The notes under the pieces were generated by a model, which was given only the letters and a program-made list of their open reading frames with translations, was not told the DNA's origin and did no database searches. From Candidatus Borrarchaeum weybense (GTDB taxonomy: Archaea; Asgardarchaeota; Sifarchaeia; Borrarchaeales; Borrarchaeaceae), in assembly GCA_019057385.1 (NCBI GenBank), contig JAHQJS010000004.1, forward strand, positions 480,001-544,000: a DNA stretch of 64,000 nt. The letters run 5' to 3'. Made by a program: the position numbers and the translations under genes. Below, piece after piece: positions 42,271 to 58,985 of the stretch; the first letter of the stretch is position 1; each line of letters begins with the position of its first letter.

Positions 42271-43026
42271 ATGCAGAAGCATCATAAGACGGCGAAATCA
42301 ATGGAAAAAACTAAAAATAAAAAGTTAGCCAAAAAAAAGTCACTTTTTATTATGATACCTGCTTATAACGAAGAAAATTCGATCGCTGAAGTCATTCATA
42401 GAGCTAATAATATTAAAATAAACAATGTTGAAATTATCACTCTTGTCATAAATGATGGCTCTAAAGATAACACTGAACGTTTAGCAGCAGAATCAGGAGC
42501 AGATTTAATTGTGTCACATAAAGTTAATAGAGGTCTAGGGGCAGCAATACGGACTGGTGTCGAAAAATCATTAGAAAACGGGGCTGATATGGCTGTTATG
42601 TTAGATGCTGACGGTGAGTATACACCAGAAGAAATTCCAGCATTAATTAAATTGATTTTACGCAATGAAGCTGACTATGTGTTAGGATCACGATTTATGG
42701 GATCAATACTTAAAATGAAAGTCCAAAGACGACTTGGAAACCTGTTTTTGACGGCACTTCTTATGTTATTTACGGGGCGACGAATTTCAGATGGACAAAC
42801 TGGTCTACGGGCATTTAGTAAACGTGCTCTACAAAATTTGGAGATTGTGCACGATTATAATTATGCACAAGTACTTACAATCGATTTACTAAGAAAAGGA
42901 TATCGACTCAAGGAAATTCCGATTTCCTATTCTTTCAGAAAAACAGGAAAAAGCTTTGTACGCTTTAAATCATATGCGTTGAAAGTTTTTCCAGCAATGA
43001 TTAAAGCACGACTCCGGCGTTTGTGA
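42271..43026 (+). CDS. GT2 glycosyltransferase (DPM1-like)
   Basis: IPAYNEE, INDGSKD, LDADGEY, GSRF, DGQTGLRA. Confidence 0.92.
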   Translation: MQKHHKTAKSMEKTKNKKLAKKKSLFIMIPAYNEENSIAEVIHRANNIKINNVEIITLVINDGSKDNTERLAAESGADLIVSHKVNRGLGAAIRTGVEKSLENGADMAVMLDADGEYTPEEIPALIKLILRNEADYVLGSRFMGSILKMKVQRRLGNLFLTALLMLFTGRRISDGQTGLRAFSKRALQNLEIVHDYNYAQVLTIDLLRKGYRLKEIPISYSFRKTGKSFVRFKSYALKVFPAMIKARLRRL

Positions 43027-43198
43027 CTTTTTTCGTCCTCATACCTGTCATCCATTCCCGTCGTAGAAGGCGTCAGACCTCTCGGGTTCAGTCTCATGCA
43101 CAAGAACGTGTTCTCCGCGTGTTGCGAGGAACATTCCGTCTTGTAGTTGGCATATTGTCCAGCAACTATGAAAAGTAAAAGTATTATGCAGATCATTT
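43026..43198 (-). ncRNA. Putative RAMP-associated structured RNA, copy A
   Basis: Homologous to 44131-44302 in conserved blocks with compensatory stem changes; begins ~24 nt after the HD gene stop. Confidence 0.65.
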
Positions 43199-43221
43199 TT
43201 TAAGCTCCATGTTAAATACTT

Positions 43222-43761
43222 CTAAAAGCCTCCTAAGTCATCTATGTAGAGATTAACCATTAAGAGTAAGTGATTTTTTAATGATGAAAAACCGAATTTG
43301 AGTGCTTCATTGATCCGATTAAGTGTTTGAGACTTATAGATATAGGAATAGAGGGCATAAAGAGAGTATTGGCGTGTTTCGATCTCTTTTTTTAGGGTAT
43401 CAAAATGAATTTTTGTTGTTTCAGTTACGCGGTAACGTGAAGGAGCGGAGAACCTGAATTTTCGTGAGATGCTGGAGGAAAATCTATCGTAGTATTGTAG
43501 GGTGGAAAGTAAAGGTAACTCTCTGTAATCTAATTCGTAATTATGATGATTCTTAACCAATTGATAGATATAGTCATCGGAGATTTTGACCTCTGTATAG
43601 ATTTTACTTGGATGTCTTTCAGTATTGACGAAATCGTGGAGAAGCATGGCGATCATCAGTTTTTGCATTGCATCTGAGAAGTTTGTTGGAAGCATTTTTC
43701 TGATCTTGATTTTTTTTGGAGAATAGAGGGGTTTCTTTTGAAGTTTTTCATTTCCTGCCAT
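43222..43761 (-). CDS. HD-nuclease domain (C-terminal half of a frameshifted Cas5-HD fusion)
   Basis: AMLLHDF, VKNHH, YYDRFSS: HD...HH...D pattern. Confidence 0.75.
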   Translation of the reverse strand: MAGNEKLQKKPLYSPKKIKIRKMLPTNFSDAMQKLMIAMLLHDFVNTERHPSKIYTEVKISDDYIYQLVKNHHNYELDYRELPLLSTLQYYDRFSSSISRKFRFSAPSRYRVTETTKIHFDTLKKEIETRQYSLYALYSYIYKSQTLNRINEALKFGFSSLKNHLLLMVNLYIDDLGGF

Positions 43762-44033
43762 TGTATTTGCCCCATGCCTTCATGGGTGTATCTTCCGATG
43801 CTATCTAGGGCAAGTGCTTCATCAAGTTTATATTCTGGAGCGATGACTTCAATATTGCCATACCAAGCCCTAAAAGTCATAGGTGCTCGTCTTTCACCCT
43901 TTGTAAGTTTGCCAAACACTCGTGGGCGTCCTTGAATGGTGACGATACCGATGTTTTTGAGTCCAAACCGATTTCTCTTAGCGACTACAGGTGTTTTAGT
44001 TATCCCCAGTAATTTAATCCAGTTTTTTGTCAT
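43656..44033 (-). CDS. Small Cas5-like RAMP domain (N-terminal half of the fusion)
   Basis: N-terminal ITKTP strand and glycine loop IGRYTHEGMGQI; overlaps the HD ORF in the -1 frame. Confidence 0.6.
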   Translation of the reverse strand: MTKNWIKLLGITKTPVVAKRNRFGLKNIGIVTIQGRPRVFGKLTKGERRAPMTFRAWYGNIEVIAPEYKLDEALALDSIGRYTHEGMGQIQWQEMKNFKRNPSILQKKSRSEKCFQQTSQMQCKN

Positions 44034-44130
44034 CGTTATTCCTCTTTATGAATAGTATCCCGTTATTAACATTTTAACGGGATATCTAAACGTATCGGTT
44101 TTTTTACCTTTTCTTCGTAAATTGGATATC

Positions 44131-44302
44131 ACTTTTATCGTCCCTTGGCTGTCATCCATCCCCATCAATACTAGAGGCGTGGGACCTCTTAGATGGTTCA
44201 GTCTCATACGCAAGAACGTGCTCCTCACAATGTGAGAGAAGCATACCGTCATGGATGAGAAAAAAGAAGAGTAGAAGAATATTGCAGAGTCTTCGATCAT
44301 TT
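44131..44302 (-). ncRNA. Putative RAMP-associated structured RNA, copy B
   Basis: Homologous to 43026-43198; begins ~9 nt after the Cas7-like stop. Confidence 0.65.
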
Positions 44303-44310
44303 ATCTCCCT

Positions 44311-45096
44311 TCAAGCGTCTAATGCGTCTAAAATTGTCCTCCAATCCTCAATTTCATCAAATTCAATTGATTCCGCTTCGATTTCTTCATTGACCTTATA
44401 GATACCATTGTTTCTTTTTACGGTCTTGATAACTTCAATTTTTAGAAGATCAAAGTCCAAAAGTTTAACCTGTCCATAGCCTGCGTTCTTACCGCCTCCA
44501 AGCGTTTCGATGTATAGCAATGACTCCATGAGGAATTTAATCTCTTCTTTAGTCAGAAGAGTTACATCAATAGAGAATGTGAAATAGCCACTGAAATAAC
44601 TTTCACGAAAATCTTGGATAGGTATACCCTCATAACTTAACGCTATCCTATTTTCGCTCAAGATATGAACTCTTTGCACCGCTACATCAGTATTATATTC
44701 TTTATGAGAGATAGAAGTAATAGGATCAGCATAGACAGAAATCCGGGATTCTTCGCGAAAACTACCAAAGATTCTTCGGAGAATACAGGGAGTATCACAC
44801 GCACCAAATGGATGAAACCCGTTAGGAATGAGTTTAGTGCCGTCTTTGAGTTCGGTTTTTTCACTGGTATGACAGACTTCGATACCACAATCTTGAGCCA
44901 GCGACATGGCGGCATGTCTTAGCATGCCACGCAAACCTTTGATATAATATACTTTGGTATTGAAGGTCTTTTCTCCATTTATATAAGGAATTTCACCGAG
45001 AAGCAACATGGTAGAATTTTTCTGTATGGAGGCATTCAGGGGTTTGGCAATAGGGGTAAAGGCTCGAACCACAAGTTGTTTTTTTGTTTTTTTCAT
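44311..45096 (-). CDS. Cas7/Csm3-like RAMP protein
   Basis: KGLRGMLRH, Cys/His cluster VCH...H...CDTPC, RIFGS, ENRI, glycine loop LGGGKNAGYGQV. Confidence 0.85.
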   Translation of the reverse strand: MKKTKKQLVVRAFTPIAKPLNASIQKNSTMLLLGEIPYINGEKTFNTKVYYIKGLRGMLRHAAMSLAQDCGIEVCHTSEKTELKDGTKLIPNGFHPFGACDTPCILRRIFGSFREESRISVYADPITSISHKEYNTDVAVQRVHILSENRIALSYEGIPIQDFRESYFSGYFTFSIDVTLLTKEEIKFLMESLLYIETLGGGKNAGYGQVKLLDFDLLKIEVIKTVKRNNGIYKVNEEIEAESIEFDEIEDWRTILDALDA

Positions 45097-45652
45097 CTTT
45101 CTAACCTCGTTTAAATCTCAATAATAACTTTTGCAACTAGATATATAAACCTATCGCTTTTTCTACCTTTTTTTAGTAAAATGGATGATTTTATACGCTT
45201 CTTTTTGAAAATAAAGCGTTTTAAAGACGTTTTTTTGTATATTACTGGAAACATACGAAAAACCTTTGTTAATTTAGGTAAAACCTTTTTTGTATTAATA
45301 ATGTCTTAAGTAAAAAGGAAAAATATTTGCAAAAATGGAGATATTCTGGAAGAATAAAAAGTGCAATAAGAATGGTCTATACTTGTTAAGTGTCATCAAT
45401 TGTGCTTGAAATTATTTATGCTTTATTTTAAAATTTCTTATAATCGCGCATTAGGTCGCTCAAAAACACCTTTCTCCCCCACTCATAGTACTTGGGGCGT
45501 TCTGTGTTACTATTGCAGGGTTCAAATCGTGTGCATCGGCTGTCCTTTAGCGCAACTGGCATATATGCAGTCTTACATCCAATTACATTTCCAGTCTGAC
45601 AAGTTCTCTTGAAGAAGCCGTGTCTTTTATAGGGAGGACACTTACTTTTCTC

Positions 45653-48600
45653 TTAAGAACTACCTAGGAGTTTTCGGCGTTTCATAACTAAATTCACTAG
45701 ACCTGGTACGAAATCTTCATTTATTTGGACTATTGAGCCAAGTGATGTGTCCTTTTCTCGAAAAATACCTGCAGAGCAGATTCTTGCCCATGCATTACGA
45801 TTCTCCTTATACGGACGAAGCTTGGCCGAGAAAATCTCTTTGTTGGGAATATTCCCCTGAATATCAATAAACTCTTCCAAGACATCATATAGCACTTCTT
45901 TAATAGGGCCACGGATTCCTCCCCGGCCAAAAATGGTTAATTCATCGGGAATATCGCTTGAACCTGCAATTAGCAATGCCAATTTCTCTGAATCGGATAC
46001 TTCAGGAATTTTATCGAATCTAAACTGCCAATCTGCGAATATCCTCATTATATAAGGCTTTTTTGCCAATTTTAATTGTGTTTCTGACATCTTCGAGGAA
46101 TCTAAGCCATATTTCAAAGCGGCGGTCTTTAACTCATCGTTTGTAAACTCATTTAAAATTAAACTTGCTTTATCAATTATTGAATTCGAAGGCTTTCCTC
46201 GGAAAATATAGCTGTTTAAATCATGCTTTACACGATTAATATATTCATTAGCGCTCCAGTCAGCGGTTCTACAAGATATAATAGTAGGTACCCCTTCGGT
46301 GGCAAGACGCATTACAGTGTCTTTTAGCAGAGGTAAGATGAATTCTGGTCTTTCCACTTCATCTATGCCATCAATTATAACAAGTAGATTTGCATTTTTT
46401 TCCTTTAATGTGCTAAACATCTGTTTCAATACATTAAATGCATCGAGCATGACAATAGATCCAAAAAACGCTTGTACAGTCTTGGTTACGTTCTTTCTAG
46501 CGCTGAAAAAAAGAGGAACAATTTGTCCTTTAACGGTGATAGTTTTCATGAGTTCATTTGCCTTATGTGCAAGAAGCCATGTCTTCCCGATGCCCATGTC
46601 CGAAAGTAAAAGGAAAATTTTACGCTCCTCGCCGATTGGTAGTGTAGCAATTTCAATAAATTCATCAATTGCCTTTTCGGCATCAACGCGAGGTTCATAT
46701 TTTTCATCACTATAGGCGATTTCGAATAAACTCGAAAATGAAACTGTGTTGAGAAAACATTTTGATAGAAAAATAATATTTTCGGTGTTTAGATCCTTAG
46801 ATATATTTTTAGATAGTATACTAACTACACGATCAAGATTTTTTTCAAGATTCTTGATATTTGTACGTACATCATCTAATCGTCTCTTAGTATCTTCTGT
46901 ATTCGATTCCAATAGATTTATAATGACATTAATACTTTCTTCGAGTTCTTGCTTTACATCTAAAGAAATATTACTTATTTCATCTTCCATCCATGCTCTT
47001 AGTGTTTCAATTGCTTCGAAAGGTTTTTTTGAAGCGAAATCAATTGCTTTATTGAATCCATTTATGATCGGACGAAGAGAAGTATCGATAATCAATTTTA
47101 GTTTGTCCTCATCAATGTTAGCATTTATTTCCTCAAGTTTCTTATTTATTAGATCTTCGATTCCTCTGAAGGATGCTTTCTTCATTGCTTCCTCAATATT
47201 TTCGGTAATCGATGTTTCATCAACCTTGATACCAAAAGAAGAAATTTTATTCGATATCAACTTTCCTATATACCCTGCAGCCGGAGGACAAACCATGCCA
47301 ACGAGCATAGAACCCACAGCAGGCAAACATTTGAGGCCTATCTCGCCAAGTGTTTTTCCTGCCTTCTTAAGTATATCTCTTATCTTCTTGAGACGTCCTT
47401 CATCTTTTTCAGGTTGATAACTCTCTGAAATCGCATCAGAATCAACTTCTTGATCGTTTGTCAGAATAGGAGGCGTAATTGGAGTTTGTGGTTGAGTTGT
47501 TCGAGTTTCTATTTCTTTTTGTTCTTCAACAATTATTTTCTTAGTTTTTTCAATTTCCTCCATTTCTATTGTCTCTGTTTGCTCTAGCGTTTCACTTGTA
47601 AGAAGCGCTTGTGCCTCTTTTGCTTTGTAGATGGCCCCTGGTTCACCTTTTATTGTGTATTTGATCTCTACCATTCGATCTGGTTGGATATTCTTGATGG
47701 ACCATTCTAAGACGGTGAAGCTCTTGCCTTCGACCAGTCTCGGTCGTTGATCAGTCAGCTCTGGCGAACTTGAAACCAGTATAAAGCCTTCAGGCAAGAT
47801 ATCGGCGATGGTGATGTCCTGAAGGGTAACTTCGTCATCAGGCTTCAGTTTATTATGATAGTAGATAGTAATAGCATATTCACCTTCTGTATCACCTTCT
47901 TGGATCGATTTTCCAACACGAGCTTTACGCCAAACATGCTCCTTTACAGTAAGTTTATCTTCTGCAATGGCACGAAGTTCTTCATGTTCGGAAAATGGTT
48001 CTAAAACATTACCTACTACTGAAACTGGTACAACAAGTTCGACTCCAGGTTCCGGTTCTACTGCTTGAAGGAGGTAATCTATTTTAACACAATCCTTTGG
48101 ATTAATAGCTTTAATTGCAACCAGTTTATTAATATTTGAGAGGGATAAAATCAATTTTCTTTCCTTTGATAAATCTCTCCCCCCTTTCTCAGTAATTTTT
48201 ACTGCTCCAGTAATATCTTGTTGATAATCTGATTCTCGTATAAGACTTGCTTTGATAGAGTCGATATTAAAACCTGGAGGGATCGTTTCATAAAAAGTAA
48301 GATCATTTAAAGGTGCAGAACCAGTATTACATGCCTTTAAGGTAGTCTTAATAGGATTTTCTTCGATTGCGTTAATTCTTTTTACTTCATATGATTTTTC
48401 TACTTTTATATCTGCTACTTTAACTAAACCACCATATTGTACTACAGAGCCAGTGAGTTCTCTCAGAAAATTGTTTTTAACTGAAAAGTCAACTTTTTGT
48501 CCAAAGCTAGGAAATTCCATAATTGGATCTTCTTTTGGATCAGGGAACACGAAAGTCTTGGTCCATTTATTCTCGGTGTCAGGACTAAGAGTTACGTAAA

Positions 48601-49666
48601 GGCTATCCTCACTGATTACTAAATGTTCTCGTCGATCTGATCTTTTTCTAAATATAGTTTCTTCGGCAGTCTGTCGATAGACTTCCACTTCGCGGAGCAT
48701 TATTTCAAACGTGGAAAGGTTTTCAAATTCAATCGCACAGTTCCAGCGACCCGGGACGTTGTCAATCTCATCTTTATCGATCCAAGTAACATTTTTGGTG
48801 TAGCCTTCTAGACCAAGAAAAATAATATCTGACATCGTTGTATCTGGTGTTGCGAAACTTATAGAAATTTTGCCTGTATTTAGTGGGACTACTGTTTCTG
48901 CTTTTAAAAAAACTCCAAATGTTATTGATTTTGATTCATTAGGAGCTAAACTAAATCCAGACCAAAAGATCTTGTCAGTCTCTCTTTTATAATCTCCATC
49001 TGCTCCCTTTAAGTCCATAACTTCCCTGAAAGCTTCAGGCAATTCTTTAACAAAAATAATGTTTTCTAAATTCGTTTTTGATTTATTAATAACCATAATC
49101 GTAACTCTGACCGCAGTTTCTTTATTTCTTATTAGTATTTTTGGCATAGTCTCTGATTCTGGTTCAGTATCTATGTATTCCTCAATTATCAGAGGTGATT
49201 CAATATCTTTTGAAACAGGAGTTCTCAAAGAATAATTTTTAAAGAATAATTCGCTGGGTCTAAGTTCTTGGATGTTTATATTGCACAGACCCTCCCTAGC
49301 TGATAAATTGGTCTTTGAAATATTTTCCCAGTAACTATCGAGATTCCAAACGCTATCTCGTTCGTTTGGATTGTAAAAACCAACACTTCCTGATGTTTTA
49401 ATAGTTTCTGTTCCATCTGCTTGAAAAACAGCATCTATTCTTTCAGAGTTGATAACAAGAATTCGTTTATTATTTTTAGCGCCAACTATTTTCCAGGCTT
49501 TAGGTATATCTTTCTCAGGCATATGTTCCAAGTCTAGTTTTTTAAGATCGACAACTACCCTTCCCTTTGGTATCTCGAATAAAATTGGACCTTCAAGTAT
49601 TTTTGGAACATAATTTGCCATTTCGGCATTTCCTCTTCTATTTTTCCTGACTATTTGTTTAGACAA
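45653..49666 (-). CDS. Full paralog of the 25783-27921 protein fused to a helical/coiled-coil region and a STAND/NACHT-like NTPase
   Basis: First ~690 aa align with 25783-27921 through KAKEAQALLT; then SDMGIGKT, LVIIDGIDE, IISCR. Confidence 0.8.
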   Translation of the reverse strand: MSKQIVRKNRRGNAEMANYVPKILEGPILFEIPKGRVVVDLKKLDLEHMPEKDIPKAWKIVGAKNNKRILVINSERIDAVFQADGTETIKTSGSVGFYNPNERDSVWNLDSYWENISKTNLSAREGLCNINIQELRPSELFFKNYSLRTPVSKDIESPLIIEEYIDTEPESETMPKILIRNKETAVRVTIMVINKSKTNLENIIFVKELPEAFREVMDLKGADGDYKRETDKIFWSGFSLAPNESKSITFGVFLKAETVVPLNTGKISISFATPDTTMSDIIFLGLEGYTKNVTWIDKDEIDNVPGRWNCAIEFENLSTFEIMLREVEVYRQTAEETIFRKRSDRREHLVISEDSLYVTLSPDTENKWTKTFVFPDPKEDPIMEFPSFGQKVDFSVKNNFLRELTGSVVQYGGLVKVADIKVEKSYEVKRINAIEENPIKTTLKACNTGSAPLNDLTFYETIPPGFNIDSIKASLIRESDYQQDITGAVKITEKGGRDLSKERKLILSLSNINKLVAIKAINPKDCVKIDYLLQAVEPEPGVELVVPVSVVGNVLEPFSEHEELRAIAEDKLTVKEHVWRKARVGKSIQEGDTEGEYAITIYYHNKLKPDDEVTLQDITIADILPEGFILVSSSPELTDQRPRLVEGKSFTVLEWSIKNIQPDRMVEIKYTIKGEPGAIYKAKEAQALLTSETLEQTETIEMEEIEKTKKIIVEEQKEIETRTTQPQTPITPPILTNDQEVDSDAISESYQPEKDEGRLKKIRDILKKAGKTLGEIGLKCLPAVGSMLVGMVCPPAAGYIGKLISNKISSFGIKVDETSITENIEEAMKKASFRGIEDLINKKLEEINANIDEDKLKLIIDTSLRPIINGFNKAIDFASKKPFEAIETLRAWMEDEISNISLDVKQELEESINVIINLLESNTEDTKRRLDDVRTNIKNLEKNLDRVVSILSKNISKDLNTENIIFLSKCFLNTVSFSSLFEIAYSDEKYEPRVDAEKAIDEFIEIATLPIGEERKIFLLLSDMGIGKTWLLAHKANELMKTITVKGQIVPLFFSARKNVTKTVQAFFGSIVMLDAFNVLKQMFSTLKEKNANLLVIIDGIDEVERPEFILPLLKDTVMRLATEGVPTIISCRTADWSANEYINRVKHDLNSYIFRGKPSNSIIDKASLILNEFTNDELKTAALKYGLDSSKMSETQLKLAKKPYIMRIFADWQFRFDKIPEVSDSEKLALLIAGSSDIPDELTIFGRGGIRGPIKEVLYDVLEEFIDIQGNIPNKEIFSAKLRPYKENRNAWARICSAGIFREKDTSLGSIVQINEDFVPGLVNLVMKRRKLLGSS

Positions 49667-49739
49667 CTAAATAAATTTACTTATAAAAAACACAAAAAAA
49701 GAATTAATTCACTAAACCGATAAGGAAATCTTAACTAAA

Positions 49740-51473
49740 TCACTCAACAATTCTAGATTTCCTAAGAAATCCAATTAAAACTCCTCCTATGATGAAACAA
49801 GCGAGTAACAGAAAAAGGACCAGGTACACAGCGAACTGTGGTGGAACAACATAAAACAGATACAGAAGGAATCCACAACTGAATAATCCGTTAATTATGC
49901 CAGTCTTCAATCCTGCATTTTTTAAGTTCAAGGATGTTTTCCTAAGACTAATAAATCCACTCAGCACTCCTGCAATGAGGAAACAAGAAATAATTCGAAC
50001 GATTTGTAAAATTATCTCAGAAGGCATAGGAATAACAAATAAAATGACTACTAATATCACAATTCCTGATATCCCACCGTTAACCATGTCTGTGGTTGAT
50101 GGTCGTTGAATGCTGAGATCGGGATAGTCTTTTAAATCCTCTCCAATGAGAAATTTCAAACGATCCATTACCATCCATTTAGAGGTTACAAAATCAAAAT
50201 AAATTCCAATGGCAGCAATAATCGAAGCAATTAAAAGGAAGTGTGGCAATAAATCTACCCCAAAGTAAACAATGAATAATCTTGATGAAAGATAAGTTAC
50301 TAAAAGAACGCCGAGACCCAATACAATAGGATGGAATATTCTCTGTAAACGAGAGTATTTTCTGAAGAAATCCAGATCTTTATTTTTTACAGCCCAATCT
50401 TGCTTGACATGAATATAAGAAAGTGATGGAACGGCGCCTACAAGGAATGCCACGGTAAGAATAATTGCTCTTAAGACAAACAAGACATCGTGAGAAGGAA
50501 TATTACTTGGCATTTGTTGTGTTAAAAAGTCTAAAAAGGGCACAACCATCGGCTGTAGCATCGCTAATATAAAAGCAACAAGATATGGGAGAAATATTAT
50601 AAAACAGCGATTCCAGTTCTCCCACTCATTACGAATTCCAAGGAAAGCGATCATGAAAGGAATGATTATTAGAATCATAAAAAGAAGTTGAGAGCTCTCA
50701 AAATAATTTAGAAATCGAAGATTCATCCCAACAATAATAGCATTGGCGACTAACGAAACTACTAACCAACTAGTCTGAATCGTTTGGTCGCTTTTTAGCC
50801 AATTTCTCCAAAAATGCTTTTCAATTTGTCCTTTGTAGCGCATTGTGTCTTTCAATGCACCAATAAAAGCCCTTGGTGTCTCGATAGTTCCTAGTAGAAC
50901 TAAGAAATTGAATACAGAGAGAAAAAGTATCACTGCGGAGAATATTTTATCCCCTCCAATGGCAAGCCATACCGTTATCAAAATGAAGGTGTCAAAAGCC
51001 CGCTCGTACGAATAATACTCCTTATATTCTAGAAAATCAAGTTTTCTTTTAAAATATGTTGAATATAGTTTAGTTGCACCCAACCATCCCATGAACCCCA
51101 TAAACATTAATCCAAAAGAGAAAATAGCCGGGAGAAACTCATTATTTAGCGCATGTATTAACAACCTTTCGGAAGCATTCGCAAAGATACTTGTAGAGAA
51201 AAACACAAATCCGCAAATTACGGAAATAAGTAGTCGTGATCTCAACTCTTCATTTCGAAGTACATCTTCTGGATTCTTCTCGAAAACCATTTTTGGAAGA
51301 TGAAATTGGTAAATACCTATTGTCAAAATAAGACTTGCAAGTAGAAAGGTATATTCAAAGTTGAATAGACTTAAAACGACAGATAAAACACTTAGCAGGA
51401 TAGTTATAAGCGAAACAAGAAGATTCTTAATATTCAGTTCTTTTGTTTTACTCTTAGAATCAATACTCCCCAT
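49740..51473 (-). CDS. Multi-pass membrane protein, unknown function
   Basis: 577 aa with many hydrophobic segments. Confidence 0.75.
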   Translation of the reverse strand: MGSIDSKSKTKELNIKNLLVSLITILLSVLSVVLSLFNFEYTFLLASLILTIGIYQFHLPKMVFEKNPEDVLRNEELRSRLLISVICGFVFFSTSIFANASERLLIHALNNEFLPAIFSFGLMFMGFMGWLGATKLYSTYFKRKLDFLEYKEYYSYERAFDTFILITVWLAIGGDKIFSAVILFLSVFNFLVLLGTIETPRAFIGALKDTMRYKGQIEKHFWRNWLKSDQTIQTSWLVVSLVANAIIVGMNLRFLNYFESSQLLFMILIIIPFMIAFLGIRNEWENWNRCFIIFLPYLVAFILAMLQPMVVPFLDFLTQQMPSNIPSHDVLFVLRAIILTVAFLVGAVPSLSYIHVKQDWAVKNKDLDFFRKYSRLQRIFHPIVLGLGVLLVTYLSSRLFIVYFGVDLLPHFLLIASIIAAIGIYFDFVTSKWMVMDRLKFLIGEDLKDYPDLSIQRPSTTDMVNGGISGIVILVVILFVIPMPSEIILQIVRIISCFLIAGVLSGFISLRKTSLNLKNAGLKTGIINGLFSCGFLLYLFYVVPPQFAVYLVLFLLLACFIIGGVLIGFLRKSRIVE

Positions 51474-52307
51474 CCCGTAATCTCCATTTGAAATATTTTT
51501 CTTAAGTTAGCTTCCACTGCGTTGTTGTTGGAACAATATTCAAGAAAAATGTTGCTGTTACCAAAAAGTAACTAACAAATATAACGGAATATCTAATAAT
51601 ATCCTTAATCTCTAATTCTTCCAAGATAATCCCCCGTTTACGAAAGATTAGGACGTCTTTATGTTTACATATATAAAATCATTCTGCTTGTTATAATTTT
51701 CGTGAAACAGCGTTTTATTAAATAGTAGAGTTCACGAAACTAATTACAAAACATCCTATGATTAAAATATTGGATCTTTTTATGATATGAAGAGGATCTC
51801 AGGAAAATAATCAGAGAACTCATGGTAGGAATTTATAAAAAAGGATAGATTTGAGTTTTAAAACAGGACTGATAGTAAAGTTATTTGTACTAATTTCACT
51901 CCAGTTCTCTTATCAATTCATTATGTTGGTGGTATGTCCCTTATATCTTCGATTTTCCAAGTTGCGTAGTTAAAAGCGAAGAGTAATGTTAGGAAACTAC
52001 TGATTGTAAATCCGAAACAAAGTCCAAGAAAAGCAGAACTTATGTCTAAACTAAGTGTAAAGGCATAAGCGAGAACAATCGAAATAATTGAGAAAGAGAA
52101 GAAGAACGTTATTAGTATAATCATCATACTAATAACTCTACTCATGCTTCGAATTTGGCTCCGTTCACGATCTCTACCCTGCTTTTCATAATTTCTCTCA
52201 AAAACTTCTCGAACGTCGTATGCATTTTTTAGAAGGAAAGTAGCAAAAATGCCTCCAATACCGAATAAAGAATCAACTAAACAAAAGGTATTCTACAGTT
52301 GAGATAA

Positions 52308-53252
52308 ATGAGTTTACGAAAAGATATTTACCCTAATGCTAAGCAAAGAGATTTAGATCGTATCCTCCCTCAGTTAGTAACTGAGATTCTCAGAGCCTTT
52401 CAGTCTTGTTTTACATCAGAACAAGACCTCATACAGTTCATCAATAGACTTCCGAGCAGAGAAATTGTAGAACTCTTTCTTGATTCGGGAAGGTTTTATG
52501 CCGTCAGTAAAAGTGTCATCACAGAGCCCTTTGTGAAGTTAATAATGATCTTTTCGATGATTGAGCGATTAACTTCAGCAGAAATACCATATACTGAATT
52601 TAAAAATTGGATACGTGAGAATGAAGTGCTCAGAGCAGCAGTTGAAGAAAATCCTGACATATCAGACTTCCATCTTTCATCTCTCAAGCAACTCATAGAT
52701 AGTCTAAGAGAGAAATATAATGAGATCTACGGCTTCGTAAGAAACATACTCTCATATTTCACGGAATATATTGCTCTTAGACATCAGATAATGATCATCG
52801 CCTCAATACATGTGAAAGACACAGAGATTTTAAGAAGATATCCTGATCAGGTAACTGGGGTACAGCCATATTCTGTGACTATTTCAGATTTTGCCACTGA
52901 ACATAATCTTGAAACATCAAAGGGATATATGCCTGTTTGCTATGACTGGAGACAATGCTGTGTAGATGTTAATACATGCTGTTGGCGTTCCAAAAAAACG
53001 TGCAGATTGTGGATAGATGACGAAGAGCGCATCAAGAGGCTTAAAACAACAATAAAGTTATTGTATGACTTTAGAAGTGTATTTGTTCATCGTGCAGAAC
53101 TGCCACCTTTTAGTGAACATCCAACATTTGGAATGTATAAACATAATAAGAAATGGAGAGATTGCCTTATTCTGTTAAAGTCATCAGAATTTGAAGCAAT
53201 CTTTGAGGAATCATTTGTCGAATATTTTAAAAGCAAGATCGACCTCGAATAA
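52308..53252 (+). CDS. ApeA-like HEPN domain protein
   Basis: LIMIFSMIERL and LYDFRSVFVH (Rx4H). Confidence 0.6.
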   Translation: MSLRKDIYPNAKQRDLDRILPQLVTEILRAFQSCFTSEQDLIQFINRLPSREIVELFLDSGRFYAVSKSVITEPFVKLIMIFSMIERLTSAEIPYTEFKNWIRENEVLRAAVEENPDISDFHLSSLKQLIDSLREKYNEIYGFVRNILSYFTEYIALRHQIMIIASIHVKDTEILRRYPDQVTGVQPYSVTISDFATEHNLETSKGYMPVCYDWRQCCVDVNTCCWRSKKTCRLWIDDEERIKRLKTTIKLLYDFRSVFVHRAELPPFSEHPTFGMYKHNKKWRDCLILLKSSEFEAIFEESFVEYFKSKIDLE

Positions 53253-53269
53253 ACCGAAGTTGAATTAGA

Positions 53270-54427
53270 ATGTCACAAATTATTATGTCTCAGCCTAGAA
53301 ATCCAGTAACAGCAACTTATGTGATTTTGGGATCTGCGATAGCCTATGTCATTTTCTGGAACTTCTCACAGGATATAGTGTCCAAACTATTGATCATTTC
53401 TGTGATCGGTGGTATGATCACATCATCACTTTACTTCTTAGAACCAATCCAGTTCGTAGATAATCGCTATCTTAGAAACAAGTATGAAAAAACCATTCTT
53501 CGAGACTTCAAAGAATATACTGAGGTCACATTTGAAAACACCTTTAAAGAACCGTATTTCGATGCCGACAGGAATAATATTTATGGATCGCTTTATCTTT
53601 CTTTGGCGATCTGCGTAGGCGCTGTAGGTACGATATTCATAAATCCCTCTGTTCCCATTTGGATTCCAGTAATTTCACTTTTTATCACATTAACATTGTT
53701 AATTAACGGCATCTACTTGATTACGCTAAGGACAGAAAAAATAGAATTGGTTCACTACATACTCTCCTTAGAGAGATACACCTTAATGGAGAAAAGTGAT
53801 ATAGGCTATCCTTACGCTCCTATAGAGAAAATCAAGATTGAACTTGCTTCACGGAGGTGGGTATCTGCACGCAACATCCTTAAGCAACACACTGAAACCG
53901 TATATGCTAGATTAAGAAACATTCGTTCCAAATTACAAGGGAATAAATGGAGATGGCAAAATACCAAAATCACAGTTGAAGAAATAAAGAAAGGATTTGG
54001 GAGTAACTCTCCTTTTGAAGATGAAGTTAAGTCATATTTGAGTAATGCCAAATTAGGCAGGACATGGCTTTTTCTCCTTGATTTAGATCTCCGTGAGTTT
54101 TCTAAGAAACTTGATGAATTGGCTAGTTTCTTACAAGCAAAAAAAATGGATCTTGTATCGATCTTACATTCTAAAACTATAATCAAAATTATGGAAAGCA
54201 AGAAAAAAGATCTATCATATTTCTATAGTGATGAGACGTTTAGCCCAGATAAGGAGGTCAATTACAGAAATCTCCAGGAAAGTTTAACGGGCGATGATAT
54301 TCCGTCTCTTATTGAGGTTAAAGAAGCCATTATAGCAATTAAAGGACTTAAACCGACTTTTGATGAAATAATTCAGAAGATTGAGGCAGTAGAAGATGTT
54401 CATTTAACAGTTAAAAAAAATGATTGA
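53270..54427 (+). CDS. Protein with 4 N-terminal TMs and a helical C-terminus
   Basis: 385-aa ORF directly after the HEPN gene. Confidence 0.7.
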   Translation: MSQIIMSQPRNPVTATYVILGSAIAYVIFWNFSQDIVSKLLIISVIGGMITSSLYFLEPIQFVDNRYLRNKYEKTILRDFKEYTEVTFENTFKEPYFDADRNNIYGSLYLSLAICVGAVGTIFINPSVPIWIPVISLFITLTLLINGIYLITLRTEKIELVHYILSLERYTLMEKSDIGYPYAPIEKIKIELASRRWVSARNILKQHTETVYARLRNIRSKLQGNKWRWQNTKITVEEIKKGFGSNSPFEDEVKSYLSNAKLGRTWLFLLDLDLREFSKKLDELASFLQAKKMDLVSILHSKTIIKIMESKKKDLSYFYSDETFSPDKEVNYRNLQESLTGDDIPSLIEVKEAIIAIKGLKPTFDEIIQKIEAVEDVHLTVKKND

Positions 54428-54571
54428 ATTAAGGTTCACCAATTTGTGCATAATTCGTAACATTATCATAGAAAAAGATAAATTTAATATGGTGAAACAT
54501 TTCCTATTTCACAATCACAACTTATTCTTAGCGGGTTATTAGCAAGAGGTCATTTTTGGAGTAGATATGTC

Positions 54572-58709: not shown

Positions 58710-58985
58710 ATCCTATCTCCTCCTTTAACCTGCGTTACAGGAGGTCGGTTCTCCTCGCCAAAGTTATCAGTCAGTACTCTACGATGATCACTGAGCGTTT
58801 CCTCTCTGTTTAAACCACCGTTTACAGAGCAAGGGACTAGAGAAGCATCCCTTGGTGTGTTCTTTAACTCTCCTGATAACGTAGATACCGTCATACACTA
58901 TATGACCTCTCTTAGGCTAATCAACTAATTGCTCTCAGGTCTCACGGAACAAGCCCCTACCCTTTAGGGTGGTGGGGTAATTGAC
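58710..58985 (-). ncRNA. omegaRNA (HEARO-like) with IS200/IS605 end
   Basis: GTCAATTACCCCACCACCCTAAAGGGTAGGGGCTTG start; GTTGATTAGCCTAAG, CTACGTTA, GATGCTTCTCTAGTC and TTTGGCGAGGAG blocks. Confidence 0.85.

Follow-up and report, generated by a model that had tools for sequence, protein, structure and literature searches.

The DNA examined here, a stretch of 64,000 nt referred to throughout as the window, comes from the forward strand of Candidatus Borrarchaeum weybense (GCA_019057385.1, contig JAHQJS010000004.1, positions 480,001-544,000). An earlier note on this DNA had described a two-gene unit on the minus strand with a copy of a repeated sequence behind each gene, and both genes and both copies were found at the positions it gave. 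The first gene encodes a Cas7-like protein and the second (gene 2) a predicted RAMP-HD protein. Together with the two element copies they form a module (M1) that is one of approximately 11 paralogs (M1-M11) in this Borrarchaeum-like genome.

The Cas7-like gene is an ORF of 261 aa (44311-45096, minus strand) that matches the Pfam RAMPs family (PF03787, E 2.4e-8). It contains the three motifs previously read from it, GLRGMLRH, C..RIFGS and GGGKNAGYG, as well as a Cys/His insertion and a C-terminal glycine-rich loop. The best Foldseek matches to its AlphaFold model (pLDDT 87) were type VII Cas7, Cas7-11 of type III-E and Csm3 of type III-A, with E-values down to 6e-9; as modelled, the protein has a Cas7 fold, which bears out the earlier assignment as a Cas7/Csm3-like RAMP. 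Its 67 homologs are all from Asgard archaea. Alignment of 10 modules placed the cas7 promoter block, with the BRE/TATA-like sequence GGTTTATATAT, at 45141-45189 on the minus strand, and a duplicate of this block (38/45 identical) directly follows the first scaffold copy.

Gene 2 (43222-44033, minus strand) is broken in the window copy by a 1-nt deletion in an A-run, and appears as two ORFs at 43656-44033 and 43222-43761. The run at 43744-43748 (minus strand) holds five A, one fewer than in the paralogs and a related strain (A6). An extra T behind position 43743 was present at full depth in run X4 and at half depth in run X3, and was absent in X1 and X2. A programmed -1 frameshift at the A8 run at 43710-43717 was considered and rejected, since the A6 of the related strain and an alignment of nine paralogs with an intact gene (267-275 aa) put the shift at 43744-43748. 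The predicted model of an intact paralog (pLDDT 88) consists of an N-terminal RAMP RRM and a C-terminal Cas10-type HD domain. Residues 1-105 form a single RRM with a glycine-rich loop that can be called Cas5/Cas6-like, its Z-scores of 6-7.3 being alike for Cas6, Csf, Csm4 and Cmr3 and too coarse to separate Cas5 from Cas6. Residues 120-269 aligned with the HD domain of Csm1/Cas10 at Z 8.3 and 7.9 (VIA-align) and carry the conserved residues H..HD..H..HH..D. The Cas5-like RAMP with an HD nuclease that the earlier note had proposed is thus recovered as a RAMP RRM and a Csm1-type HD domain, but not as one ORF in the window.

Complex prediction weakly suggests that the two proteins pair. The Cas7-gene 2 combination scored 0.52 against 0.01 for the best control, in a range (0.60 or less) that held only 7 of 80 solved complexes, yet both of the mismatched pairs that passed the mark; 58 of the 80 passed the mark itself, as did 2 of the 110 mismatched pairs. 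Contact agreement between runs was 71% or more and the partner pLDDT was at least 72, although likeness to solved Cas7-Cas5 complexes may have contributed to the pass. The two-gene unit differs from a canonical type III effector in that it holds neither a Cas10 large subunit with Palm/cyclase domains nor Cas11, and its HD domain comprises only about 150 aa.

The report of no CRISPR array, cas1 or cas6 is true for the window, where a whole-genome repeat scan found no array, but it does not extend to the genome. Elsewhere the genome has a canonical array (C4:148-152 kb; repeat length 37 nt, at least 49 repeats) next to a Cas1, the only other repeats in the scan being two short tandem repeats. 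It also encodes helicase-Cas1 fusions, which occur in six of the 11 modules (M2, M3, M5, M6, M9 and M10) and not at the window module. Those upstream of M6 and M10, with 1323-1363 aa, match PF01867 (Cas1) at their C-terminus (E 1e-7 to 4e-9), and M2, M3, M5 and M9 have proteins homologous to this DEAD/DEAH helicase-Cas1 fusion. The presence of helicase-Cas1 in six paralogs matches the module set to ARAMP. Given the frameshift in gene 2 and the missing helicase-Cas1, the window copy is probably a decaying, non-autonomous member of the set. The NACHT protein encoded near it was rejected as a counterpart of the 1330-aa proteins of the sister modules, which are helicase-Cas1 fusions without sequence similarity to it. 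That M3 is simply an insertion by comparison with contig L095 was likewise rejected, because L095 keeps the first 17 helicase-Cas1 codons and is a deletion derivative.

The structured sequence of about 170 nt that had been seen after each gene is real and recurs far above chance, but its conserved core spans only about 134 nt. Copy A (A-type; 44123-44261, minus strand), supported by covariance model R1, directly follows the cas7 stop codon, and copy B (B-type; 43018-43151, minus strand) has its 3' end at the end of the inserted island described below. The family counts 24-27 copies in the genome, of which about 20 immediately follow cas7 or gene 2 within the approximately 11 modules. Within the scaffold, a covarying 5' hairpin is followed by a multi-helix domain. 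Eight of the 10 pairs of helix P1 stay paired despite changes on both sides, and 93.9% of its cells are paired, compared with 40-53% when the partners are slid. Paralogs with only 64-81% protein identity have the same 25-nt core without a single change, and the many G-U pairs indicate that the RNA strand is the gene strand. These sequence patterns mark the element as a true family of structured RNAs that is linked with the RAMP modules.

About 45 nt upstream of B-type and orphan copies lies a TATA box, and these copies are followed by a hairpin with a T-run; tandem scaffold copies are common. The 3' flank of copy A (44057-44122, minus strand) holds a hairpin and, upstream of the gene 2 start, the gene 2 promoter block with the TATA-like sequence TTTAGATAT; this flank is alike among A-type copies and hence is not a variable guide. 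No Rfam 15 family reached its gathering score on the element, and only chance-level matches appeared at E up to 10. Readings of the conserved CUGA/GAUGA as a ribozyme, box C/D, H/ACA or k-turn were rejected, having no Rfam support and registers that differ between copies. The sole Rfam match in the window is a HEARO RNA at 58744-58985, which is unrelated to the element.

The 3' end of scaffold B coincides with one end of an 11.45-kb island (43017-54464) that is absent from three genomes of the same genus (G305, G307 and G308). Besides the RAMP module, the island contains genes for a NACHT ATPase and a 14-TM protein as well as two more genes, and no integrase family was recognised among its ORFs. 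Synteny with the three genomes breaks at 43016/43017, at the end of a host GT2 glycosyltransferase gene (42271-43026, plus strand; PF00535, E 7.5e-24) whose last three codons were altered by the insertion, from ...RLRKLR* in relatives to ...RLRRL* in the window. The best explanation is that the locus descends from a type III CRISPR effector, belongs to the array-less ARAMP type and occupies the right end of an inserted genomic island. The host DNA abutting scaffold B (42985-43016, minus strand) is antisense to the last GT2 codons and starts 8 nt after a conserved GTC, and a read-through transcript from scaffold B would carry it as a guide.

This register of 7-8 nt after the conserved GTC recurs in four other loci. 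About 8 nt past the GTC, 30-38 nt match the uninterrupted insertion site in relatives, and homology between paralogs stops at the scaffold 3' end in M6/M10 (87% over 5.4 kb), M6/M9, M2/M1 and M2/M5. The guide of M8 is identical to the G308 empty site at 36/38 positions and spans the junction, while that of M9 is identical to the G308 site at 31/32, exactly at the point where synteny resumes. The M6 island interrupts ftsY, where it borders the 5' edge of a site that matches the guide (24/30), and it brings along a surrogate 5' end of the gene. In an orphan mini-element (L112), the guide is identical at 28/30 positions to the empty site of the window genome, where the element's flanks overlap by 22 bp. 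Almost all 3'-segment matches lie downstream on the same strand. The junction geometry varies by locus: some junctions fall within the target, others at its edge, and one comes with the 22-bp duplication; M5 fits only loosely. The pairs were found by ungapped and local-alignment scans, blastn-short having missed all but one. Taken together, these alignments show that the element boundary is sharp and that guide-target identity is present. The guides have drifted from their present targets at codon third positions, which indicates that perfect pairing is not maintained. A 6-nt mismatch periodicity as a Cas7 signature was rejected for the same positions, as mismatches that fall largely on codon third positions give multiples of 3 or 6 anyway (M6, by hand count: 15, 18, 21, 27 and 30).

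The element can thus be described as a putative small-RNA gene of three parts: a roughly 134-nt scaffold, a fixed 7-8 nt linker behind the GTC, and a target-identical tail of about 30-38 nt. The tail would be acquired by one of two routes. In one, seen in the window, the scaffold borders immediately on the host target; in the other, the element has a copy of the uninterrupted target within itself, and a hairpin terminator comes after that copy. The RAMP-HD proteins would assemble on the scaffold RNA, and its 3' segment would pair with the empty target site. The complex may then promote integration through the helicase-Cas1 fusion of the six sister modules, or cleave empty sites and so retain the element. 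Transcription of the element, binding of its RNA by the proteins and action of the complex at the target are steps that we infer. We hold with slightly more belief than doubt that these loci encode a RAMP-HD complex with an omega-RNA-like or CAST-like homing guide, the element tail representing the empty insertion site. Of the earlier proposal that the RNA is a guide or scaffold, the structure, the link to the modules and a guide-like 3' segment that corresponds to the local insertion target are retained, whereas the RNA also occurs without RAMP genes and the flank of copy A is a promoter block.

A broader reading, which we put forward only tentatively and consider rather doubtful as a whole, is that ARAMP modules serve as the targeting arm of integrative elements guided by RNA, which would form a previously unrecognised class in Asgard archaea. 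Such elements would combine Cas7/Cas5-HD with a single scaffold RNA, lacking both repeat and array, whose guide mirrors the empty attachment site. Helicase-Cas1 would be recruited for integration, or empty sites would be destroyed, and the islands would carry surrogate gene ends that repair essential targets such as ftsY.

The homing-guide reading has to be weighed against the element being a dispersed repeat, either a small-RNA gene or MITE-like, that is specific to this archaeal class and functions, or simply spreads, independently of the RAMP proteins; it would have entered the modules through insertion preference and co-inheritance, and its target-like segments would be its own target-site duplications. 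The earlier note had held that genome-wide occurrence without RAMP genes would speak against its proposal, and such occurrence is found in part: of 59 metagenomic copies that could be classified, 26 are not preceded by a RAMP gene, and a genome of a sister family (G309, 80% complete) contains 33 copies, lacks Cas7 and retains gene 2 only as C-terminal relics. The G309 copies include a burst of a repeat unit of about 275 nt, the 5' part of which, considered as a common left end of the modules, has no similarity in the window genome. The overlapping flanks of the orphan mini-element and the frequent tandem scaffolds also suit a dispersed repeat. Against this, the A and B positions are kept, with core and structure intact, across about 10 diverged paralogous modules. 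Some orphans adjoin relics of the gene 2 C-terminus, one is clearly the product of a deletion running from helicase-Cas1 through gene 2, and simple duplication leaves unexplained both the internal third copy of the intact target and the fixed 7-8 nt register. We regard the dispersed-repeat explanation as unlikely. The presence of the element at homologous loci, which the earlier note had expected, holds for the modules of this genome (about 20 of the 24-27 copies) but not for distant ones: the covariance model found nothing in distant RAMP-positive genomes, nor in the divergent module M11 of the same genome. Distant ARAMP loci instead have a different conserved hairpin element right after gene 2, with six different complementary stems; its arms were read directly from the sequences, the RNAalifold call having been lost to a one-column misalignment.

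Two other explanations deny the RNA a guide role altogether. In one, the RAMP-HD proteins use crRNAs supplied in trans by the canonical array, and the element is a cis-regulatory or terminator structure, or an attC-like DNA recombination site, at gene ends. The array lies elsewhere on the contig of the window, array borrowing is frequent in type III systems (PMC12669027), and one element follows each gene. However, orphan copies sit between divergent genes with their own TATA box rather than at gene 3' ends, the G-U pairs favour RNA over DNA hairpins, the element core is unlike the genome's CRISPR repeat, and a terminator needs neither a conserved multi-helix fold of 134 nt nor a target-identical tail, all of which makes this explanation quite improbable. 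The other, that the element is the gene of a small conserved peptide (...TFLCMRLN..RG.TP...GMDD...), draws on one frame that is stop-free across the core in 71 of 86 copies and on some indels of 3 nt. It was rejected as highly improbable because start codon and ORF extent are inconsistent, other copies are open in another frame, and the core contains 1-nt indels; 25 successive invariant bases without relaxed third positions and the compensatory double changes in P1 also oppose it.

The homing-guide reading finds parallels in guide-RNA systems of mobile elements. As in OMEGA systems (TnpB/IscB), the scaffold RNA ends at the boundary of a mobile element so that flanking target DNA would become the guide, the guide matches the empty site, and protein-less derivative copies are numerous. 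The proteins here, by contrast, are class 1 RAMPs with an HD nuclease in place of RuvC, a copy of the target with a terminator lies inside some of the elements, and the RNA follows two separate genes. With CASTs (types I-F, I-B and V-K) the loci share a nuclease-poor, CRISPR-derived effector on a mobile element and a homing guide that matches the element's own attachment site beside the element end. They differ in having no CRISPR repeat or array, no Tn7-like genes noticed beside the module, a helicase-Cas1 fusion as candidate integrase, and insertion at or within the target and not at a fixed distance. A Cas1-family protein on an inserted element and the 22-bp target-site duplication of the mini-element recall casposons, but no terminal inverted repeats were recognised here, Cas1 is fused to a DEAD/DEAH helicase, and RAMP proteins and RNA are present.

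ARAMP and HRAMP are array-less RAMP systems, derived from type III, of Asgard archaea and haloarchaea (Makarova et al. 2019/2020; PMC8730458, PMC12669027). The passages of these reviews that deal with them mention no RNA partner and anticipate that they work by mechanisms other than those of CRISPR (PMC8730458, PMC12669027); being array-less, the systems have been described as possibly not programmable. The present locus family offers a concrete candidate RNA partner, with a compact scaffold and a 3' guide in fixed register, and its natural guide-target pairs and empty sites make the role of array-less RAMP systems directly testable. Should the guide prove to steer integration by Cas1 or cleavage of empty sites, this would represent a new route by which mobile elements recruit CRISPR parts, and a compact class 1 tool without any need for repeat processing might be developed from it. 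An RNA-guided integrative class would be a natural case of Cas1-based, RNA-programmed DNA insertion linking casposons, CRISPR adaptation and guide-RNA effectors. Were the RNA unrelated to the proteins, it would still be a new, abundant family of structured small RNAs of Asgard archaea that marks insertion junctions.

The loci resemble ARAMP and HRAMP in their diverged Cas7, accompanied here by a RAMP that may be Cas5- or Cas6-like, the lack of an adjacent array and an associated nuclease, and ARAMP in particular in the Asgard host and in a distinct Cas1, found in most ARAMP loci and in 6 of the 11 modules here as the helicase-Cas1 fusion; the window copy departs from ARAMP in lacking Cas1. The family differs from both systems in its dedicated scaffold RNA with a target-identical 3' segment, and in a nuclease that is a Cas10-type HD domain fused to a Cas5-like domain and not HNH or PD-(D/E)xK. 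As a separate observation, a PD-(D/E)xK-like gene, assigned by motif only, lies upstream of the RAMP locus in one genus (g21).

The homology between paralogous modules stops at the last bases of the conserved RNA scaffold (M6/M10, 87% over 5.4 kb; M6/M9; M2/M1; M2/M5), and comparison with related genomes places an insertion boundary at the same point. Three genomes of the same genus (G305, G307 and G308) align with the window up to 43016, followed by the stop of a GT2 gene. The equivalent of 26 nt past 43016, they resume at the window's 54465; the segment 43017-54464 is thus absent from them, and its end coincides with the end of scaffold B (43018-43151, minus strand). RNA reading through from this scaffold is predicted to be antisense to the 3' end of the GT2 gene, beginning 8 nt past a conserved GTC. 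At other loci, what follows the scaffold, in the same 7-8 nt register, is a copy of the target in uninterrupted form. The left junction of the 11.45-kb insertion holds a stretch (54415-54435) that repeats, in degenerate form (12/21), the 21 nt leading up to the right junction (42996-43016); target duplication followed by decay may explain this, as may chance.

Several loci allow the guide to be compared with its target directly. The guide of M8 is identical to the empty site in G308 at 36 of 38 positions, across the junction, and the element provides the host gene with a new start codon. That of M9 matches 31 of 32 positions of a G308 site, precisely where synteny resumes, while the site now present in the window's own genome has drifted (25/30). 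M6 is a 10.5-kb island within ftsY (C4:338940-349300). The original 5' part of ftsY, 94% identical to G308, runs precisely to the 5' edge of the site that the guide matches. Its promoter and first ~40 codons persist as a relic at the left junction, and the gene is restored by the island's own diverged promoter and 5' part, which serve as surrogates. Some 40 nt inside the left end of this island lies a short string similar to the scaffold 3' end (GACGAAAAAGGTC). In a mini-element of ~500 nt (L112), the guide is 28/30 identical to an empty site in the window's genome, at which the element's flanks overlap by 22 bp. When 1.5-12 kb around every copy was scanned, nearly all target matches lay downstream and on the same strand. 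Junction geometry varies among loci, and M5 is only a loose fit to the pattern because paralogous genes blur the picture. Because the guide copies have diverged from their targets at synonymous positions, a 6-nt mismatch register was dropped as evidence.

The element has the features of a structured RNA. An alignment of 24 good genomic copies contains a hairpin of 10 bp (P1), 8 of whose pairs show compensatory changes, a run of 25 invariant nt and a long-range closing helix; the inner helices change one-sidedly only, among G-C, G-U and A-U. In 65 further metagenome copies, whose alignment was fitted to the model and so favours it, 93.9% of cells were paired against 40-53% with slid partners, and the covariation score lay above those of all 500 shuffles. 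Abundant G-U pairs assign the RNA to the gene strand. An Rfam search of the element gave no match. A peptide-coding element was rejected, since the open frame is not the same in all copies, some indels are of 1 nt, and third-position relaxation is absent from the core although the flanking proteins have diverged to 64-81%. B-type and stand-alone copies have a TATA-like box ~45 nt before the core and, 45-70 nt beyond it, a hairpin with a T-run, a layout that reads as that of independent small-RNA genes. Copy A (44123-44261) is bordered on one side by the cas7 stop and on the other by a promoter block, a second copy of which stands upstream of cas7.

The two-gene unit with which the RNA is associated was confirmed at the position given in the earlier note. 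On the minus strand, a 261-aa ORF (44311-45096) with the motifs GLRGMLRH, CxxRIFGS and GGGKNAGYG is followed by copy A, gene 2 and copy B. The ORF's Cas7 RAMP assignment was borne out by Pfam RAMPs (E 2.4e-8) and by its AlphaFold model (pLDDT 87), with Foldseek matches to Cas7 of type VII, Cas7-11 and Csm3 (E down to 6e-9). The RAMP and HD domains proposed for gene 2 were likewise recovered, using a model (pLDDT 88) of the intact paralog M2, which shares 70% identity with the C-terminal fragment in the window: residues 1-105 form one RAMP RRM (Z 6-7.3 against Cas6, Csf, Csm4 and Cmr3), and residues 120-269 correspond to the HD domain at the N-terminus of Csm1/Cas10 (6ifk_A, Z 8.3, rmsd 3.7, 135 aligned; 6mua_A, Z 7.9). 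The conserved H..HD..H..HH..D residues are consistent with an active HD site. Co-folding of Cas7 with gene 2 scored 0.52 (best control 0.01; contact agreement between runs at least 71%; partner pLDDT at least 72), passing a mark reached by 58/80 solved complexes and 2/110 mismatched pairs; scores of 0.60 or below comprise 7 of those 80 complexes and both mismatches. The modelled complex lends weak support to the pairing, and its pass may derive from resemblance to solved Cas7-Cas5 complexes.

Gene 2 is in two pieces in the window (43656-44033 and 43222-43761), broken at an A5 run (43744-43748) where the nine intact paralogs (267-275 aa) align with ..KK.. encoded through an A6 run. Among public-run contigs placed on the window, the extra base is found at all depth in run X4, from a strain ~98% identical to the window, and at half depth in X3, and is missing from X1 (the probable source sample) and X2, indicating a strain-level indel. 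A conserved recoding site was ruled out, as a related strain carries the extra base. Given the broken gene 2 and the lack of Cas1, the window's module is probably a decaying member of its family. The 1337-aa NACHT protein upstream is unrelated to the 1323-1363-aa proteins of the sister modules.

The window's genome (4.18 Mb, 8 contigs) holds ~11 paralogous cas7 and gene 2 modules with amino-acid identities of 64-81%, plus a more distant one (44%). In six of these, a protein of 1323-1363 aa lies just upstream on the same strand (L062-L066: C4:341765-345775, C4:747834-751826, C5:121034-125125, C4:906352-910323 and C3:94327-98310), with a DEAD/DEAH helicase N-terminus and a Cas1-like C-terminus; PF01867 was over threshold in two of the six (E 1e-7 and 4e-9). 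The two domains are separated by a middle part of ~600 aa. A canonical CRISPR array (C4:148000-154500 region) lies ~370 kb from the window, next to a normal Cas1 (C4:153602-154474); the array's 37-nt repeat, present at least 49 times, ends ...ATTGAAAT in the reverse-strand reading.

The earlier note proposed testing whether the element co-occurs with RAMP genes, and it does so in part. A metagenome scan by element core alone, unbiased as to RAMP genes, found 24 copies after gene 2 and 9 after cas7, but also 26 with no RAMP gene upstream; the neighbours of these 26 were diverse housekeeping-like genes in all orientations. The element model found nothing in five distant RAMP-rich genomes or at the divergent module M11 of the window's genome. 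A genome of the same class but a sister family (G309, 80% complete) has 33 element copies, no Cas7, and only C-terminal relics of gene 2 beside a few copies. Many of the 33 take the form of a dispersed unit of ~275 nt (L130-L146) in which the RNA is preceded by a conserved part of 135 nt, often with TA-rich sequence flanking the unit on either side; the presence of at least nine long copies that are nearly identical points to a recent MITE-like burst. An unrelated ~325-nt repeat (L086:11885-12224) occurs at more than 20 places in the window's genome at 85-91% identity (e.g., C6:839083-838760, C4:851249-851574).

Two observations soften the case against a strict partnership of RNA and RAMP proteins. 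At least one orphan arose from a deletion spanning helicase-Cas1 through gene 2, which joined the first 17 helicase codons to the region just past gene 2. Moreover, in distant modules gene 2 is directly followed by a different conserved element (L035:3160-3275, L057:3132-3245, L059:2906-3010, L037:3206-3320, L038:490-604(-) and L042:3166-3280), consisting of CCGTT, a copy-specific yet complementary stem and the loop AATGAAA..AGAAGGGCTGGA; the loop, of ~22 nt, sits in six different, fully complementary stems. In those modules it may correspond to the RNA described here.

A guide-RNA gene carried on integrative islands is the simplest account covering all observations. The element would comprise a scaffold and a 3' guide, with the scaffold forming the island's right end. 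The RAMP-HD proteins are most likely the guide RNA's partners and helicase-Cas1 most likely the integrase of autonomous copies, while orphans would be internally deleted or non-autonomous derivatives. Production of the guide RNA, its binding by protein and its action at the target are putative. The guide and scaffold role that the earlier note gave the RNA finds partial support in a 3' tail equal to the target and in real empty sites in relatives, and is qualified by how widely the RNA occurs without RAMP genes.

Reviews describe ARAMP as array-less, type III-derived systems that include nucleases and mostly a distinct Cas1 (PMC8730458; PMC12669027). The gene content of the modules fits this description. 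Homologs of the module proteins were found in Asgard archaea only, the closest named genome being Candidatus Borrarchaeum yapensis. In a 400-genome sample of the phylum, 23 have the gene pair. In distant genera cas7 and gene 2 adjoin or overlap, and genus g21 has two more conserved genes 5' of the pair (L035:32-775, L037:241-693, L057:38-751, L036:21-542), neither with a Pfam match or a homolog in the window's genome. The first has a Y.VDF...ILECS motif resembling PD-(D/E)xK nucleases.

The working logic proposed for the element family, a scaffold with a 3' guide at the element end, is that of omega RNAs and also of CAST homing guides. Lacking both a RuvC nuclease and repeats, the family belongs to neither OMEGA nor CAST. 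HEARO is the omega RNA of IscB-type elements, and the window contains a full-length HEARO RNA at 58744-58985 (-) (Rfam RF02033, 127.7 bits), so classical OMEGA elements are also present in this genome.
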